From sequence record PP400788: DNA of 64,000 nucleotides, one strand, 5' to 3'. Numbering within the stretch: position 1 is the stretch's first letter; each line of letters opens with the position of its first letter. The notes beneath the pieces were generated by a model that was given only the letters and a program-made list of their open reading frames with translations, was not told the origin of the DNA and ran no database searches. Shown in pieces: positions 2,280 through 56,924 of the stretch. Source of the DNA: Escherichia phage FL33. Both the position numbers and the translations under genes were made by a program.

Positions 2280-4457
2280 TTAGGCCGCAAGGGCCTTCAT
2301 AGTTTTAGCGATTTGGGAAACTTCATCATCACTTAAAGAGTTGCGATAACCGATGAAGTCGGAAACAATACGGAATTTCTTGGTAAACTCAGCAACCATT
2401 TTATCACTGTTTTTTGAAGCATTATTTGATAATACATCAAAAAGATTAGTTACTGTCCAGATGTCATGACCGATGGTATCTTTTCCACCGTTGAAATATA
2501 CACCCTGTAATGAACTAACCATATTAGCGAGTCGTGTATATTCTTCAGAAACTTCATCTACACTGAAGTACTTCATCATAAAATCTAGTTCAGGATACTT
2601 AATAATTTTATCAATATATCGTTTAGCTGAACTTGAATAACCTACATACTTATCATAATCTACATCATCAAAAGCATCTACATATAAATCACGCAGAGTT
2701 TCAAAAATACATTGGCACTGACCAAGTTCTTTTACCTTTTTCTGCAAAAGCGGACGAATAACATAAAATTCATTAATGCCAATAAGATTAGCCATACGAG
2801 TCAAAATACTCGTAGATGGATGACAAAGCGATGTAGTACCATCCATAGAGAAAATATCAGAACGATGCATGTATGCTACATAACCAGTAATTTCATCTGC
2901 TTCTGACGTAAGTGTAAACAGTTCCTCTTTTTCCCAGCGCCCGTCTTTAATTTCAAACTTAAATGCAGTAACAGCTTTAGGACGAGGAGCTTTACTTTTA
3001 ACTGCCTTCGGAATATAACTTTTAACTAAATCTTCAATTTCTGACAAATAATGAATGTTAACTTCATCACTTTCAAACATTGCCATAATATCAGGAAGCA
3101 AATCAATCTGCGATTCTACTTCCGGATTAATAAACAGAAGACGCTCATTGTGATGAATATTTAAGGTGTTATTAAATTCATTATCATCTAACGCACGTGC
3201 TAATCCACGGACAATATTAACACGATTTTTAATATTATCAATGACGATATTAATTTTTGTTGTGTTAATACCAAACAGACGATAACTTGATGCAACGGCT
3301 GAAGTTTCATGGCTTTGCTTAATGCGTTTCAGTCGAGGGTCAAGATTTACTTCATACACAACCCCTGCATTGCATAACTTACTGTCAGGCTCAAACATGC
3401 TCTGCATCTTCTTATATGACAGATTTTTAGTCGTGAATTTGACCGAATTACTAATCATATAATCTCGAGCAGAATATCCCATCTTCATCAATTCACGGTA
3501 TGTATGACGAGGAGATGTAGATTCTTTAAATCGTTTTACATCTTCATTAAATGCCTTCTCACTAAGCTCTTTAACACGCTCAATAATATTTTTACGAGTA
3601 CGATCATCTAGTGAAAGAGCCTCACGCGATGGAGCAATATCAAGTGAACCCATTGGAAACTTAATGTAATTCACTTCATTGCGAATGCTTAACCAGTTAC
3701 GGTCTCTAATAACGCCATCAATAGGATAAACAATACCACCATAGATAGCATATAATCCACCACGATCTGGCCAGTATCTTTCTGGATTTACACCATAATA
3801 ATCATCAAAATCCGGAAAATAATCAATTTCACGGTCAAGACCGTTAATGATAGCTAAATCTTTGAATGGTCGCATGATATAAGAAACTTCATAAGCAAAG
3901 TTTTTAAAGTCTTTTTCTTCAACTGGAACTACGATTTCAATACCAGTTTTATCGTCTGGACCCATTTCCTTTACGAATGTAGGTTTAATCTGCGGACCGT
4001 CACCATCCATATAAGCTACATAACCGCGAATTTCACCTTTATGGTACGAAGTAATACTAAACGTATCAGTATAACTAAACGGAGATTTAGAACCTAAACC
4101 AAATCCACCAATGAAATCGTTAGATTCAGCCTTAGATGAACTAAAGTATGAATTATACAACCCAGGAGAATTATCATCACCTTGAATATCAAAATCACTC
4201 ATACCTGGACCAAAGTCTCGACAAACAAATCGTGGGTCTAATCGTCCTGGAACTTGAATGATAAATTTTTCAGGATTTCCATTAAGAGCATGGGCATCAA
4301 TCATGTTGGTAATCAATTCACGGACTACTGCGCGAATCTTGTTTGTATACAAATCAGATGATAGAATTTTAAATACTTTAGGAGATGCTGTGATGCTAAA
4401 TGCTTTTGATTTAGAACCATTACCAAGAATTGTTTCTTTTTCAGTGGTGATAATCAT
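2280..4457 (-). CDS. rIIA: rIIA protein, 725 aa
   Basis: Length equals T4 rIIA as recalled; N-terminal histidine-kinase-like ATPase region; synteny. Confidence 0.9.
2282..2296 (-). other. RNA hairpin at rIIA/rIIB junction
   Basis: AGGCC-GCAAG-GGCCT dyad overlapping rIIA stop. Confidence 0.35.
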
Positions 4458-4726: not shown

Positions 4727-6546
4727 TATTGGCTCATCCATTCTTTACGAAGGTCAGCATTATCTCCCATGAGCATTTCAAAAAGCTCTTTCCAGTTCTC
4801 AGGAAGTTTAACAACATCATATACTGGGTTTTGAATCATCTCACGATATTCAGATTTTTCCAAAGAGCCAAGTCCCTTAATATAACGGATGCTATGTTTA
4901 GGTAGAGCATCTTTAGCACTCTCATATTCAGCGACTGTATAAAACCATTCTTGTTTTTTACCGACCTGAGCGATGATTACAGGAGTTTTGACAAAGCGAA
5001 TTCTTCCTTGTTCAAACAGTTCTGGCCAATTACTAAAAAATCCGAGCAGAGAAGGATAAATGCTTCCTAGACCATCATGGTCAGCATCAGTCATAATAGC
5101 AATATTATGATAATTCAAGTTTTCGGCTTTTTCACCAAGAACTAATCCAGTGATTGCGCAAATATCAAACAGCTCTTTGTTTTTAAGCATATCAGCATAT
5201 GACATACCCCAGCTGTTAAGAACTTTACCACGCAATGGATAACCGCCATGAAGTTCTTTATCACGAACATCAATAAGATATCCGATAGCAGAATCACCCT
5301 CAGTCAAGAAAAGAGTAGTGTCAGCATCTTTACCGCAAAGATTCGCTTTAATATGTTTGTGAACCTTAGCTTTAGAGGCCTTTTTAGCTGCTTTAGTTTC
5401 TGCTGCTTTTTCTGCCGCCAATTTACGAGCTAATGCTGCTTCAACAATAGGCATAATCAAGGCTTCGTTTTTAAGAAGTGCCTGAGCAATTTTCTTAGCA
5501 TCTAATTGGATATGATTACGAATATCACCATACGTTGACGTTAAACGTTCTTTAGTCTGAGAATCAAAACGCATGTTGCTCATGTCTCTAATAAACATCA
5601 ACATTGTGAGACATTCTTTAACACGAGCTTTAGTGACTTCAATACCCTTATATTTCTTTTTAATACCAGGCAAAAGATGTTCACAGATATCATCCATTAC
5701 ACATTCAACATGATGACCACCATTTTTAGTATGGATGTTATTCACATAAGTTAAATGACGGAAGCCATCTGGTGATGTTGTGAATGCTATAGAGACTTTA
5801 TCATTTTCTTGAATGATGTTATCTTCGCCAAATTGTTTAGCAAATCGTTTAAAATTACCATCAACCTTTTTACCATTAAATGTGAACTTGATATCAGGAT
5901 AAACGACTGCCAATGTTTGAAGTCGGTCTAAAGTAATATCTAAATAAATTTGAGATAAATTATGCTCTTCAAATGAAGAGAAATCAGGAGTGAAGATTAC
6001 TTTAGTGCCTTTACCTTTAGATTTCTTAGAAGACCATGATTTGTTTTCCATTCCGTTTGAACAGTTAACAGTGATTTCGTTTTCGCCATCTGACGTGATG
6101 CCTGTAAACAACGTAGAGAAGATATTAGTTAAACTACTCCCGACGCCGTTCATACCACCAGTCTTGCGTTCAGAGTCATCACCAAAGTTACCACCGGCCT
6201 TTGGAATAGTCCAGGCTGCTACAGGCCCAGGAATTTGTTCACCCGTTTGGTCGGTAACTAAACCTTGAGGAATACCACGTCCGTTATCTTCCACCGAAAC
6301 TTGATTATTTTTAATTTGCACATCAATTTTATTTGCAAACTTAAATGATGTACGAATAGCTTCATCAACCGAGTTGTCAATAATCTCATCGATTAATTTA
6401 ACCAGGCCAGGAACATATTCAACTTGTTGATATTTACCAAACAAAAAACGCTCGTGGGCTTCTTTAGCCGAAGAACCAATATACATACCACTACGTTTCT
6501 TAATATGTTCTACATCTGACAATACCTTAATTTCATTTTTAATCAT
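4726..6546 (-). CDS. 39: DNA topoisomerase II large (GyrB-like ATPase) subunit gp39, unsplit 606-aa form including the region T4 encodes as gene 60
   Basis: GyrB-like N-terminus; 606 aa is close to the recalled sum of T4 gp39 and gp60; single uninterrupted ORF. Confidence 0.9.
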   Translation of the reverse strand: MIKNEIKVLSDVEHIKKRSGMYIGSSAKEAHERFLFGKYQQVEYVPGLVKLIDEIIDNSVDEAIRTSFKFANKIDVQIKNNQVSVEDNGRGIPQGLVTDQTGEQIPGPVAAWTIPKAGGNFGDDSERKTGGMNGVGSSLTNIFSTLFTGITSDGENEITVNCSNGMENKSWSSKKSKGKGTKVIFTPDFSSFEEHNLSQIYLDITLDRLQTLAVVYPDIKFTFNGKKVDGNFKRFAKQFGEDNIIQENDKVSIAFTTSPDGFRHLTYVNNIHTKNGGHHVECVMDDICEHLLPGIKKKYKGIEVTKARVKECLTMLMFIRDMSNMRFDSQTKERLTSTYGDIRNHIQLDAKKIAQALLKNEALIMPIVEAALARKLAAEKAAETKAAKKASKAKVHKHIKANLCGKDADTTLFLTEGDSAIGYLIDVRDKELHGGYPLRGKVLNSWGMSYADMLKNKELFDICAITGLVLGEKAENLNYHNIAIMTDADHDGLGSIYPSLLGFFSNWPELFEQGRIRFVKTPVIIAQVGKKQEWFYTVAEYESAKDALPKHSIRYIKGLGSLEKSEYREMIQNPVYDVVKLPENWKELFEMLMGDNADLRKEWMSQ

Positions 6547-51808: not shown

Positions 51809-52528
51809 TTAGGATTCTTCTAAATGTCTTTTCTGAAAAGTTGATACCATACTACGATACGGTTCATTTGGATATCCATGTTTTATAGCTTCCTTTGTAA
51901 ATTTTCTCCATCCACATTTAGTTTCTTTCCAAAGCTCGAATAATTCATCTTCATACTGCCATATAGTTAAATGAGAACGCTTTGCAGCTTTAATTCCATT
52001 AATATGCTTTTCTTTTACTACAGGATTGCTTAGTTTCTTTTTAATAATATTACTAACTTTTCTAACAAAAACTGGGTCCTTATATCGTTGCGAAGTTTTT
52101 ATTGAAGTGTTTAATTTAGCTTCCGGCGTGGATGTGACCTCTTTCATCTTTTTCTTCATATGCTGTATATGATTAGGATTTTTCCATAAATTTATAGAAT
52201 GCTTTTTGCATTTTATCCTAGTTTCATCTGCAACCTTTCCTCCTTCACCCCCGTATGACAGGTTAACGCAGTTTTTTCCATATTTCAATTTACCTGCCAT
52301 GATATATAATATTTCGGCTTGTACCATTTTATCATAATTATCAAAAACTTCTAAAACCGTTTTTGATAATATATGGTCATTTGACACTTTTACACGTTCT
52401 ATATAATTTCCACTACCAACATACGAATCATTGATGTTATTAGTTATATGTCGACCATAATAGTATTTCTTAATACCTGTCTTTAAATTTAATATTTCAG
52501 TTTTATAGATAGTAAAATATTTTTTCAT
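51809..52528 (-). mobile_element. Seg-like GIY-YIG homing endonuclease gene, 239 aa
   Basis: TIYKTEILNLKTGIKKYYYGRH ... YVGSG motif arrangement as in T4 Seg proteins; stop overlaps neighbour start. Confidence 0.55.
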
Positions 52529-53557: not shown

Positions 53558-53588
53558 AGTTTTGTGAAAAATTTTTGAAATAAAAAAA

Positions 53589-53608
53589 AGGGAGCCCGAA
53601 GGCTCCCT
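53589..53608 (-). terminator. strong intrinsic terminator after the nucleotidyltransferase gene
   Basis: GGGAGCC-UUCG-GGCUCCC then UUUUUUUU in minus sense. Confidence 0.7.
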
Positions 53609-53610
53609 TA

Positions 53611-54624
53611 TCATTTATAATAACTTCGGTGGTTTTCAAGATAAACCCTCTCAAGGAAGTCATCCCAGAAACTCATGTCTACTTTTTGCTGCATACCGTT
53701 CTTAGAAGCTTCAATGGATGCTGCTTCTACTTGATCGACCACATCTTCCAAAAACTCTTGGACAGTTTTAAATGGATGTTTACCCAACTTCACGTCGAGA
53801 ATAAATGGAGCATCTTGGAGTGGATAAACCAAATCACCAGTTTTGTAAATTTCCAATAGTTGGAGTCCACCACGGCAAGCATGACTAAGAGCTTTCCAGT
53901 CAATGCCCTCATTCGCTTCAGCCTTACGAGCACGTTCGCCGTATTCAGCATCTAATTTGTTCAGTGACTGCTTAAGCTCAATAAGAGAAAGCGTTGTCTG
54001 ATATTTACGACCCAACACAGTATAGAACGTTTGCGGGCCTGTTTTCTCGTGATTATGGAACACCCATTCACAGAACTCGTTCTCTGGAAGACGATGCTTA
54101 ATATCTTCAACTTTAGTGCGACGCTGCTTAATGGAACCGTCTTCTTGATAATCAACCCACTGATCGGGGATTTGATTAACTACTTTCAATACATCACGCA
54201 ATGCGGCCAAACGAGAACCCTTAACACCATATTTAGAAGCTTGCTTGCGAACATATCCTAAATAGGATTTCATGTTAGTTGTATAAAAACGAGAACGATT
54301 GTCTTGAATAAACTTCCATACATCAGGCAAATCTGATTTAACTACCAGTTCAGGTGGAGTATGGAGCATATCCAATGCTACGGTTTCACCATCTGCTGCT
54401 AATTTAAAGAAATATTTAAGACTGTATAGTTCATGGTCAATATCATCTTTAGTGTTTTTAGATGATGTGTTGTTAGTGTTTTTACTCATATGCTCTTTAA
54501 CATTTCCGATAAGAATATCGCGAGCAGGAGGAACAAAGATTTCTTTAAAATCTACATCAGATTCTGGAGTAGAAGTTCCATAAAGATGACTACCAAAATA
54601 GCTTTTCATTACTGTTTTCATCAT
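53611..54624 (-). CDS. pol-beta-superfamily nucleotidyltransferase, 337 aa
   Basis: N-terminal GS-x10-DVD motif (YFGSHLYGTSTPESDVDF) and downstream LDML acidic strand. Confidence 0.55.
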   Translation of the reverse strand: MMKTVMKSYFGSHLYGTSTPESDVDFKEIFVPPARDILIGNVKEHMSKNTNNTSSKNTKDDIDHELYSLKYFFKLAADGETVALDMLHTPPELVVKSDLPDVWKFIQDNRSRFYTTNMKSYLGYVRKQASKYGVKGSRLAALRDVLKVVNQIPDQWVDYQEDGSIKQRRTKVEDIKHRLPENEFCEWVFHNHEKTGPQTFYTVLGRKYQTTLSLIELKQSLNKLDAEYGERARKAEANEGIDWKALSHACRGGLQLLEIYKTGDLVYPLQDAPFILDVKLGKHPFKTVQEFLEDVVDQVEAASIEASKNGMQQKVDMSFWDDFLERVYLENHRSYYK

Positions 54625-55082
54625 TCAGCCTTATATTCAATAACAGGACATACTTTAGCTTTACGAGCTTTTAAAAATTCGACGATAATAGATTTCTTGG
54701 GTTGAATAGGAGGTAAACCTTTATACGCCCTATCAATATTTTCTACATGTAAAGCATAATCCTTTTTCCATTTATAATCTTTATATTTTTCATGCAGTTG
54801 TGCAGGAATAACACATGAACCGATAATAAGTAAAACAAGCAAAATAGCAAGTATAAATGCTGATGGAATAAGAGTCCATAAACTACCAAAAATAAGCCAT
54901 TTCTGTATGATTTCTGCACAGATGATAGTTAGACCTGCGAGTATAGTACATCCGAAAAAAGAAACGAAAAATGTAGGAATAACAATAGACCAAAAATACG
55001 CGCACAGTGTCTTAGGTCGTTTCCATTCATCATTAAACATTTTGAATAATTTATAATGCCAAGAGTTTTCATTAATAATCAT
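54621..55082 (-). CDS. membrane protein, 153 aa
   Basis: Three predicted TM segments. Confidence 0.55.
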   Translation of the reverse strand: MIINENSWHYKLFKMFNDEWKRPKTLCAYFWSIVIPTFFVSFFGCTILAGLTIICAEIIQKWLIFGSLWTLIPSAFILAILLVLLIIGSCVIPAQLHEKYKDYKWKKDYALHVENIDRAYKGLPPIQPKKSIIVEFLKARKAKVCPVIEYKAE

Positions 55083-55084
55083 AA

Positions 55085-55606
55085 TTATCCTTTCATTGAA
55101 GGTGTAACAGTTGTTAAATACTTAATCATAGCTTCAGCTTCTGATTTTGATAATGAAATTTCTCCATTGTTTTGACGAATAGAAATAAAATCCGGATGAC
55201 GGTCACCACCAGCTTTTAAAACACACATATAAGTATCAGTTTCATCTTCAATATTTGAAATGATTGAAGCAGTTCCACATGAATGTGGTTTTTGATAAAT
55301 CAATACAGCTTTTCTTCCACCGTTTGACTGTTCATAAACTTTTAACACATCAAACAAATCACTTCTTTTATCAATAGCTAAGATGTTGTTTTCATCTTCA
55401 ATGTTAAATCCTTCGGATACTTCATAAAGCGTTACCCATAAATCACCTATATCGATAGTAGCATTTTCCTTTCCATGACTTTCAAGAGCATGACAAATTT
55501 TCTTGATTTCATCATAACTCATTTTAATAATATCATCTCCTTGAATAAGGAAGATGTCATTTTTAAATTCAACACGAATTAAACCGCTTCCACTTGAAAT
55601 AAACAT
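55085..55606 (-). CDS. hypothetical protein, 173 aa; paralog of next ORF
   Basis: C-terminus SKSEAEAMIKYLTTVTPSM resembles TKDEAIALKTYLDSVIPTM of neighbour. Confidence 0.55.
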   Translation of the reverse strand: MFISSGSGLIRVEFKNDIFLIQGDDIIKMSYDEIKKICHALESHGKENATIDIGDLWVTLYEVSEGFNIEDENNILAIDKRSDLFDVLKVYEQSNGGRKAVLIYQKPHSCGTASIISNIEDETDTYMCVLKAGGDRHPDFISIRQNNGEISLSKSEAEAMIKYLTTVTPSMKG

Positions 55607-55612
55607 ATTTCC

Positions 55613-56179
55613 TCACTTTGAAATCATAGTTGGAATGACAGAATCAAGATAAGTCTTTAGCGCAATAGCTTCGTCTTTTGTAAATGTAACAATATGTGCT
55701 CGAAAATCGTCAATTTGGCGAATAGTTAAGACATCTCCTTCTTCATAACATTTTGATACATTTAAAACAGTTTCATCATTCTGATCGCACTGATCGCAAG
55801 CGTTAGTAATAATAGCATTGCAATTTTTGAGCCATTTTAAACTATGTTTTCTTTCATTAGAATAATAAAAATATTTAATCTTAGCTATAAAACTATCCCA
55901 ATGGATAACTGATAAACACATTGACTCACTTTTAATATTAAATCCTGGGCATGAAGAATAAAAATGAATTTTGTGCTCATCATTGATGCTTACTATTTTA
56001 TCAGTATAAGGATATTCAATTTGGATTAAATGAACGATTTCACTAGGCGTAAAATATAGCATATCGTCTTCTTGCGTCAAACGATACATGTTATTTACTT
56101 TTTCTATAGCCAATTCACCAAAAAGCGGACTAACTTCTAATACTAATCGTTTCATATTGATTCTCTTCGACTCACTCAC
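55613..56179 (-). CDS. hypothetical protein, 188 aa; paralog of previous ORF
   Basis: Shared C-terminal motif; tandem arrangement. Confidence 0.55.
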   Translation of the reverse strand: MSESKRINMKRLVLEVSPLFGELAIEKVNNMYRLTQEDDMLYFTPSEIVHLIQIEYPYTDKIVSINDEHKIHFYSSCPGFNIKSESMCLSVIHWDSFIAKIKYFYYSNERKHSLKWLKNCNAIITNACDQCDQNDETVLNVSKCYEEGDVLTIRQIDDFRAHIVTFTKDEAIALKTYLDSVIPTMISK

Positions 56180-56314
56180 AATTACATACTCCTTTGAATA
56201 ATATCAATAATGTTGTTCACCAGATTATAAGTAAACATTGGGTAATTATATTGAATCATCACATACACAACAAACAAAACTTTCATTCTCTTCTCCTTGA
56301 CCGTTGACAAGATT

Positions 56315-56344
56315 ACTATACCATAACCTTGTCAACTTGTAAAC
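56315..56344 (-). promoter_or_regulatory. T4-type early promoter with internal dyad
   Basis: GTTTAC 56339-56344, TGGTATAGT -10; dyad GACAAG/CTTGTC. Confidence 0.55.
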
Positions 56345-56346
56345 CA

Positions 56347-56520
56347 TTAAATGACGTTTTCAATAAAATTCTGAAGCTTTGTGTGAGCATCAACCATAAT
56401 TTTCATTTCTTCCTTTGCGAAAGCTGTACCTCTTTCCCGAGCAGAATACTCATAGTCAGAAACTGCATTAGCATATTCTTCAATTAGCTTCATTAAAAAC
56501 ATTTGCTTTTCAGTTTTCAT
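56347..56520 (-). CDS. small hypothetical protein, 57 aa
   Basis: Hand translation MKTEKQMFLMKLIEEYANAV...; not in ORF track. Confidence 0.3.
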   Translation of the reverse strand: MKTEKQMFLMKLIEEYANAVSDYEYSARERGTAFAKEEMKIMVDAHTKLQNFIENVI

Positions 56521-56740
56521 TATTCCACCTAATCATTTCAAGATATTGAACTAACTTAGCTTTGGATTTATCCAAATCCTTTTTAGCTGCTTCTATACCG
56601 TCGTATGAATATCCTTCACAGTGCTCAACTGCCAATTGATATGAATCTATTTCAATATCACGTGCTAATTTAATGATTTTTTCAAACTGTTCACGTGTTA
56701 GCATACTAAACTCTCGTATTATGATCAATAATTTCATCAA
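56510..56740 (-). CDS. hypothetical protein, 76 aa
   Basis: ORF. Confidence 0.45.
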   Translation of the reverse strand: MMKLLIIIREFSMLTREQFEKIIKLARDIEIDSYQLAVEHCEGYSYDGIEAAKKDLDKSKAKLVQYLEMIRWNNEN

Positions 56741-56924
56741 GAAACATATCTAACGCTTCTAAAGCATTATCAACTTTAGCTTCAAATTCTTCAATACCTG
56801 ATAAGGCAAAGTTAATGCGTTCCTCATCTGCTTTGCGAATTAAAGCTACCAATTCTTTAATTTTATCTGCTTGTTTGATACTAATCATTATTCCACCACA
56901 TATGAAAGAGAAAATATTGCACAC
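56706..56924 (-). CDS. hypothetical protein, 72 aa
   Basis: ORF. Confidence 0.45.

Follow-up and report, generated by a model that had tools for sequence, protein, structure and literature searches.

We analysed a 64,000-nucleotide stretch of the Escherichia phage FL33 genome (sequence record PP400788; hereafter the window) and describe two adjacent genes on its minus strand, open reading frame (ORF) A, of 173 aa (55085..55606), and ORF B, of 188 aa from a GTG start (55613..56179). Both belong to the MobD.1 family of T4-like phages. The split between them is old, two copies are the usual state in T4-like coliphages, and the single copy of T4 reflects replacement of ORF A by a homing-endonuclease cassette. 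A preliminary description, made from the sequence alone, had presented the two ORFs as a tandem paralog pair of unknown function that arose by recent duplication, ends in clearly related sequences and shares an internal Cys-containing motif. It proposed pairwise alignment, structure prediction and a survey of relatives as checks, with the lack of a significant alignment score as the outcome that would speak against the pairing. Both ORFs lie where it placed them, on the minus strand. The pair itself is not new: hundreds of genomes carry it annotated as hypothetical proteins, and both Pfam and PHROGs cover the family. What is new is the tracing of the T4 single copy to the mobD insertion, a B/A fusion at a microhomology, the repeat homology with its PUR-like reading, and a conserved linkage to an RlaP-family gene.

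Two old members of the MobD.1 family

BLASTP aligned ORF A with ORF B over almost their full length at 26% identity (178 columns, E 4e-8), and their Smith-Waterman score of 90 compares with 31.5 +/- 5.3 in 2000 shuffles (z = 11), none of which reached 90. The N-terminal and C-terminal halves each scored over all shuffles. Both proteins also carry the same two Pfam domains: PF24449 (T4_y05I_N; gathering score 24.9) is matched with 113.9 bits by ORF A (E 6e-33) and 133.7 bits by ORF B (E 4e-39), and PF24448 (T4_y05I_C; gathering score 27) with 82.9 bits (E 2e-23) and 81.9 bits (E 4e-23), respectively. PF24449 is found in 28 of 28 aligned relatives, and phrog_1502 is matched by both ORFs. Pairwise alignment thus bears out the paralogy that had been proposed.

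ORF B can be identified from its Pfam matches and the comparison with T4 as the ortholog of T4 mobD.1 (UniProt P39240). It is about 85% identical to MobD.1 and occupies the same place downstream of mobD.2, with the DNA colinear through the stop codon. Its start is ambiguous, as a GTG at 56179 follows an AAGGAG Shine-Dalgarno sequence and gives 188 aa, while an ATG at 56155, the RefSeq choice, gives 180 aa. ORF A, assigned by Pfam and BLASTP, is a diverged paralog with no intact counterpart in T4. It has the same two domains and the same predicted topology as MobD.1, but it is only 25-26% identical to MobD.1 and to ORF B, falls in a separate clade, and is left in T4 only as its first six codons, upstream of mobD. 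The Pfam name 'y05I' prompted us to consider T4 nrdC.8 (175 aa) as a third family member, and we rejected it, as it gave no Pfam match. MobD.1, the sole T4 member detected, is presumably the 'y05I' behind the Pfam family names.

The related C-terminal peptides that had first drawn attention to the pair are the best-conserved part of the whole MobD.1 family. The Cys motif fared less well. One Cys does align between the two proteins in BLASTP (ORF A C110, ORF B C120), but it is missing from most family members and so is not a conserved functional motif. Cys residues vary across the family, from 1 to 6 per protein, and the CxxC of ORF B is missing even in 95%-identical orthologs; we therefore rejected a conserved Cys or metal-binding motif.

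Database entries name no function for either ORF, all being 'hypothetical' or 'uncharacterized', in agreement with the preliminary description; the UniProt title of P39240 is 'uncharacterized 21.1 kDa protein'. A literature search on mobD.1, y05I and nrdC.11 turned up no functional study, but only positional mentions and a report that the T4 interval from nrdC.11 to mobD.3 can be deleted. The 'mobD.x' names are positional only: unlike the T4 homing endonucleases, ORF A and ORF B lack HNH and GIY-YIG motifs and do not encode endonucleases. Separately, we observed that RefSeq/PGAP labels ORF B orthologs and T4 mobD.4 (6353-6535 of the T4 locus stretch) as 'molybdopterin-guanine dinucleotide biosynthesis protein MobD', because the T4 'mob' (mobile endonuclease) locus names collide with bacterial mob genes, and that this mislabel is spreading to bacterial WP_ records.

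How old is the pair? A blastn comparison of ORF A with ORF B found no nucleotide similarity (best E 0.12), and identity at third codon positions is 0.43 against 0.35 expected from composition, which is near saturation. ORF B shows 43-53% identity to the MobD.1 proteins of other phage groups and about 37% to the Dhakavirus type, whereas ORF A reaches 25-32% with any of them. In a neighbour-joining tree, ORF A-type sequences formed their own clade in 200 of 200 bootstraps and ORF B grouped with MobD.1 of other groups and genera, also in 200 of 200; a grouping of A with B appeared in 0 of 200. Midpoint rooting placed ORF A outside all MobD.1 orthologs. Since nucleotide similarity is absent, third positions are nearly saturated, ORF B is closer to MobD.1 of other genera than to ORF A, and A and B are never recovered together, the split is old.

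These results leave very little room for the recent tandem duplication with later divergence that had originally been proposed. The two genes are adjacent, in the same orientation and of the same domain architecture, as such an event would leave them, but the near-saturated synonymous sites and the tree make it a very improbable history. The tree is explained either by a duplication older than the split of the MobD.1 lineages, by much faster evolution of ORF A, or by capture of A from elsewhere. Under the last of these, ORF A would be no local duplicate but a divergent family member that recombination brought in from another phage lineage and set beside MobD.1. A-type genes are seen only in Tequatrovirus, with other genera single-copy, and the locus is a hotspot of mosaic exchange (the mobD insertion, alternative B alleles, and a Phage_tudor gene in some contigs); the position of ORF A outside all MobD.1 orthologs would fit as well. 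We nevertheless consider capture unlikely. No donor lineage with a single-copy A-type gene was found among 1.84 billion representatives, and the same tree would result if an ancient duplication had been followed by loss or if A had evolved faster.

Loss and fusion of the pair among T4-like phages

The FL33 region is 100% identical across 1751 nt to Escherichia phages vB_EcoM_NBG2 and FL34, and several hundred Tequatrovirus (T4-like) genomes are 90-99% identical to it. Genes at least 90% identical to ORF A occur in about 433 phage records, T6 and Yersinia phage PST among them, and B-type genes at least 80% identical in about 405, while a T4-type mobD at least 95% identical is present in only 47. 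The survey of relatives therefore shows that two copies are the common state among T4-like coliphages, with T4 carrying one copy, mobD.1, and T2 carrying pseudogenes.

The T4 genome (NC_000866) retains a record of how its second copy was lost. Identity with FL33 runs to the stop codon of mobD.1, across the ribosome-binding site and 19 nt into ORF A (six codons, MFISSG). The intergenic GGAAAT together with these 19 nt (55588..55612 in FL33, minus strand) is the last stretch in common before the mobD cassette. Past codon 6 T4 carries that cassette, and homology is back at the start of nrdC.11. The mobD gene, a free-standing HNH homing endonuclease, sits exactly at the position of ORF A and the membrane-protein ORF that follows it in FL33; the cassette replaced ORF A from codon 7 on together with the membrane ORF. 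Because the ribosome-binding site and six codons of ORF A survive before the cassette, the T4 state is the derived one, and the position of the cassette explains the difference in copy number between T4 and FL33. A review of T4 mobile elements gives the mobD insertion site as nrdC.11/mobD.1, its target unknown (PMC2988022).

In T4 (5210-5283 of the T4 locus stretch) the surviving ORF A start opens a 21-codon ORF (MFISSGTDMCYKCKAKLNETKNQ, then a stop) whose stop codon overlaps the mobD start codon (ATGA). This arrangement suggests that translation of mobD may be coupled to the leftover initiation region of ORF A.

Both family genes are pseudogenes in T2. In one record (PV648364.1, locus stretch 1440-2519), ORF B has two frameshifts and the middle section of ORF A is out of frame with several stops; nrdC.11 is still annotated as intact. 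In a second T2 record (MH751506.1) ORF B is in three pieces.

A further outcome is fusion. In six metagenomic contigs a single gene of 179 aa (P0011) separates the upstream genes from the membrane ORF, for example at 3001-3540 of one contig. To the left of a 10-nt microhomology, GATGAAACTG, this gene is 95% identical to B, and to the right it is 98% identical to A, so that its N-terminal ~125 aa are of B type and its C-terminal ~55 aa of A type. The microhomology encodes codons D-E-T and occurs once in each paralog, at 55768..55777 in ORF B and at 55237..55246 in ORF A (both minus strand), which form the two arms of the event: the hybrid is an in-frame B/A fusion by a 531-nt deletion between them. 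The contigs that carry the hybrid have a Phage_tudor gene in place of mobD.2 upstream.

Allelic variation was also seen in phages with both genes. ADUt (OQ466432.1, 7297-8373), EC121 and vB_Eco_EL carry a 97%-identical ORF A beside a B allele only 47% identical to ORF B of FL33. This allele is closer to the type of other phage groups, indicating mosaic allele exchange at the locus.

The region from nrdC.11 to mobD.3 is deletable in T4 (PMC9825161), and a comparison of ORF A between FL33 and phage sb4 gave a dN/dS of 0.43 from few substitutions. Taken together, the losses in T4 and T2, the hybrid gene, the deletability and the dN/dS value identify ORF A and ORF B as real but dispensable accessory genes.

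A predicted architecture of three repeats

AlphaFold2 models of the two proteins were built from the 28-sequence family alignment, with secondary structure assigned by DSSP. Both show the same predicted topology, three successive beta-beta-beta-beta-alpha modules. Modules 1 and 2 make up the Pfam N domain (approximately 55850-56152 in ORF B and 55313-55606 in ORF A, minus strand, from Pfam and the models) and module 3 the C domain (approximately 55622-55849 and 55094-55312). Mean pLDDT is 80 for ORF B and 77.5 for ORF A; it exceeds 90 for modules 1 and 2 and falls to 55-84 for module 3, in which the ORF B model has a fifth strand. Such low values might be expected of a module modelled without its partner, although this is only suggestive.

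Two of the modules are recognisably related. Profile comparison by hhalign aligned repeat 1 with repeat 3 over 43 columns (P 2.4e-7, probability 93%, z 14.7 against column shuffles), and they have in common the pattern h-x-Q-x-D-D ... E-h-x-x-L; on this evidence repeats 1 and 3 are homologous. Repeat 3 is also the best-conserved part between the paralogs.

The predicted arrangement of three beta-beta-beta-beta-alpha repeats per chain is that of Pur-alpha, one of the PUR-repeat proteins of PC4-like or Whirly-like fold (5fgo, 5fgp, 3k44, 8cht; Borrelia Bpur, 3n8b). We compared the repeats with a profile of five PUR repeats, drawn from human PURA (confirmed against PDB 8cht and 8chw) and Drosophila (5fgp). 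The repeat-3 profile scored 21.5 (P 9e-4, z 7.1) over 47 columns in the correct b2-b3-b4-alpha register, a score to be read with the small size of the five-sequence profile in mind and against a column-shuffle null that ignores secondary-structure periodicity. None of 500 column shuffles reached it (mean 8.6, sd 1.8, max 16.8), and reversing the profile gave 9.1. Repeats 1 and 2 gave no significant hhalign match to the PUR profile. In a Foldseek search of PDB, the ORF B model matched Drosophila Pur-alpha repeat III (5fgo) locally with probability 1.0 and a target TM of 0.69-0.72, at an E of only 0.04-0.1. The top PDB matches of the ORF A model were weak (prob <= 0.57) and include the PC4-like guide-RNA-binding MRP1/2 proteins (2gje, 2gia) and 2it9, which is classified in the same SCOP superfamily as MRP1/2. 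We consider a PUR/PC4-like repeat fold likely for the MobD.1 family, though not established. This fold class is probably where the Pfam label 'putative transcription factor' comes from.

By analogy with Pur-alpha, repeats 1 and 2 would fold as one intramolecular PC4-like domain, while repeat 3 would be unable to complete a domain alone and would pair with a second repeat 3. A repeat 3 that needs a partner implies that A and B would act as homodimers, as an A-B heterodimer, or as both. Heterodimers of Pur-alpha and Pur-beta through repeat III are formally possible (PMC7549692), and the A/B paralogs could likewise heterodimerise. The family nonetheless differs from Pur-alpha in several respects, being acidic rather than basic, unmatched by the PurA model, unrecognisable in repeat 2 and restricted to T-even-type phages. 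Phages do provide precedents for proteins of the beta-beta-beta-beta-alpha type: the PC4 homolog of T5 (4bg7) binds single-stranded nucleic acid (PMC7549692), and ChmC of jumbo phages is described as a Whirly-domain RNA-binding protein (PMC11077065). Neither has a sequence match or a significant structural match to A or B, and both differ from them in repeat number and charge.

The reach of the family is narrow by sequence. When 1.84 billion representatives were searched exhaustively with the family profile, only 28 proteins came back at E <= 1e-3, and in a word-indexed search of 5.8 billion clusters every named member came from T-even-type phages. Repeat 3, the C domain, also occurs as stand-alone proteins of 67-87 aa (about 75 aa), including gp119 of Yersinia phage fHe-Yen9-01 (74 aa), gene 105 of Citrobacter phage Merlin (78 aa) and a protein of Erwinia phage Cronus; a single-repeat PUR protein of Borrelia offers a likeness to these. 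Sub-threshold matches to Pfam DUF7189, a 68-aa family, were seen in 8 of 28 members (best E 3e-5) on b3-b4-alpha of repeat 1, covering residues 16-38 of ORF A and 30-54 of ORF B, and also in the stand-alone fHe-Yen9-01 protein; DUF7189 may represent a further relative with a single repeat. Foldseek searches of viral models (BFVD) found uncharacterised proteins of 120-130 aa from Bacillus phages W.Ph. (gp212), BPS10C and BPS13 and Mycobacterium phage Babsiella that resemble the two-repeat N domain (prob 1.0, target TM 0.45-0.55, ~10% identity). These models suggest that the two-repeat fold may be wider in phages than the sequence family. The viral-model search offered no function to transfer, as it returned only uncharacterised family members and these two-repeat look-alikes.

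A conserved gene block and the proposed role

The genes of the region all lie on the minus strand, in the order tk, rI.1, rI, rI.-1, several small mobD.x ORFs, ORF B, ORF A, a 153-aa membrane ORF, nrdC.11 and nrdC.10. Directly upstream of ORF B is a small mobD.2-like ORF (56182..56310; phrog_3515, E 4e-22), whose stop adjoins the Shine-Dalgarno sequence and start of ORF B. A gap of 6 nt separates ORF B from ORF A, and the gene for the membrane protein (54621..55082; phrog_944) begins 2 nt downstream of ORF A and overlaps the start of nrdC.11 by 4 nt. The nrdC.11 ortholog (53611..54624) encodes a Pol-beta nucleotidyltransferase of the RlaP family (PF10127, E 3e-11; phrog_388, E 5e-137). A promoter-like site, TTTACA-17-TATAGT with an upstream TG (56315..56343, minus strand), matches the sigma-70 type at 10 of 12 positions. 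It is the best such match of the region on the gene strand, lies just upstream of the mobD.2-like ORF and ORF B, and we take it to fit the T4 early-promoter type. Terminator-like hairpins lie downstream of nrdC.11 (53588..53609, minus strand; 9 pairs with a T-run) and at the end of the upstream unit (57167-57150, minus strand). These signals suggest that nrdC.11 is the last gene of a putative, probably early-transcribed unit that runs from the small ORF through B, A and the membrane protein to NrdC.11.

The block is conserved beyond Tequatrovirus. A y05I-type protein, a membrane protein of ~150 aa, sometimes one extra ORF, and the nrdC.11 RlaP nucleotidyltransferase occur together in four genera, with Dhakavirus JS98, Tegunavirus fHe-Yen9-01, Moonvirus Merlin and the hybrid-carrying Tequatrovirus contigs as examples. 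In the compared loci the membrane-protein gene always comes after the y05I-type gene, and the membrane proteins are homologous, with 31-59% identity, an invariant N-terminal SWH..P..LC.YFW and a C-terminal A.K.K.CP. A Pfam search gave no informative match for them. Bacterial RlaP extends RNA 3'-OH ends by 1-2 nt, and T4 NrdC.11 is placed in the same family, its function unknown (PMC12776372).

Because of this tight, conserved linkage to the membrane protein and to an RlaP-type RNA 3'-end nucleotidyltransferase, an accessory role appears to us the most likely one: A and B would be a dispensable accessory, either an adaptor or a handler of single-stranded nucleic acid or RNA, of an early membrane-protein/NrdC.11 module, which would plausibly serve RNA repair or counter-defence. 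The whole explanation, that ancient MobD.1 paralogs with Pur-alpha-like dimerising repeats are accessories of the NrdC.11 module, we hold tentatively, at a shade short of an even chance. A bolder version is unlikely as it stands. In it the MobD.1 family would be a phage-specific, acidic counterpart of Pur-alpha, and an A-B heterodimer through repeat 3 would form, with the membrane protein and NrdC.11, an early RNA-repair or counter-defence module that T4 and T2 have lost in part or whole; the family would then be the second known to combine type I (intramolecular) and type II (dimerising) PC4-like domains.

A number of results weigh against the accessory explanation. On the structural side, they include the limits of the PUR comparison and the E-value of the 5fgo match given above. 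Profile comparison found no sequence similarity of repeat 2 to repeats 1 and 3 or to PUR, and the ORF A model had no significant PDB match in Foldseek. We rejected the top global Foldseek matches of the full-length models (Ctf4, sliding clamps and polo-box domains; query TM <0.2, rmsd ~19 A) as spurious, arising from the repeated beta-sheet-plus-helix units. None of the 28 members matched Pfam PurA, PC4, Whirly or a DNA-binding family even at E <= 10, and a search of all PDB sequences with the family-alignment profile gave one meaningless match (E 1.1) and no PUR, PC4 or Whirly protein. Composition points the same way. PC4-like nucleic-acid binders are typically basic. Every member of this family is acidic, with a pI of 4.1-5.8 and a net charge between -3 and -30, and this speaks against simple binding of nucleic acid. 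Q, D, E and N account for most of the conserved polar residues, with only two invariant lysines and few conserved basic or aromatic positions; judged by charge and conservation as a proxy, a positively charged or aromatic beta-sheet surface for single-stranded nucleic acid is not indicated. Finally, the deletability of the nrdC.11-mobD.3 interval in T4 counts against the explanation, as does the retention of NrdC.11 in T4 with ORF B only, the membrane-protein gene having been lost along with ORF A, and in T2 with neither A nor B intact. Strict dependence of the enzyme on A and B is thereby excluded.

The acidity of the family invites a different reading, in which A and B would be acidic factors that bind proteins (a host-takeover or anti-defence inhibitor, for instance, or a nucleic-acid mimic), with the beta-beta-beta-beta-alpha modules serving only as a scaffold, no nucleic-acid binding and no tie to NrdC.11. 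Net charge falls to -30 in Dhakavirus-type members, an acidic Q-x-D-D motif is conserved on repeats 1 and 3, expression is probably early, and the genes are dispensable in T4 and T2, as is typical of accessory and counter-defence genes; in some Tequatroviruses an ORF A of 97% identity stands beside a B allele of 47% identity, diversity of the sort expected from an arms race. Yet PADLOC models matched none of ORF A, ORF B, the membrane ORF and NrdC.11, no similarity to a known anti-defence protein was found, and Foldseek gave no structural match to known DNA mimics. The tight linkage to the membrane protein and RlaP in four genera argues instead for a shared pathway, and we regard acidic binders as possible but rather unlikely. 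Taking the Pfam label literally, A and B would be transcription factors that bind DNA to regulate phage or host genes. Besides the Pfam description itself, this has in its favour that PC4, Whirly and Pur-alpha are transcription regulators that bind single-stranded DNA (PMC7549692) and that Borrelia Bpur is described as a PUR-domain transcriptional modulator (PMC3764826). It is distinctly improbable, given that no helix-turn-helix or other DNA-binding model was matched, that the proteins are acidic, and that the literature search found no experimental report.

Two features of the surrounding genes deserve mention. A 239-aa ORF at 51809-52528 (minus strand), with a GIY...YYG-like N-terminus, matches the homing-endonuclease family phrog_314 (E 6e-30). 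It sits between the nrdC.9-like gene and nrdC.10. T4 lacks it, as does the NBG2 locus, which is otherwise identical, and it is apparently one more insertion of a free-standing endonuclease. Upstream of the mobD.2-like ORF, the small ORFs at 56347-56924 (minus strand; mobD.3/.4/.5-type, 57-76 aa) form a tandem array of DUF7438 paralogs; the two of these in the window that were scanned both match PF24219, and related contigs have four or five copies (for example at 1818-2731 of a hybrid-carrying contig).

The history of this locus makes the reference phage T4 the atypical one. A homing endonuclease erased its second MobD.1-family gene together with a conserved membrane-protein gene, and T4 nomenclature consequently has no name for ORF A. 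For the proteins themselves, the comparison offers a concrete structural hypothesis, a Pur-alpha-like architecture of three repeats that would dimerise through repeat 3. The conserved block ties the A and B genes to NrdC.11, which represents the RlaP RNA-repair nucleotidyltransferases in T4. If that link is functional, two-copy phages such as T6 and NBG2, and not T4 or T2, would be the right systems in which to study NrdC.11 and its partners.

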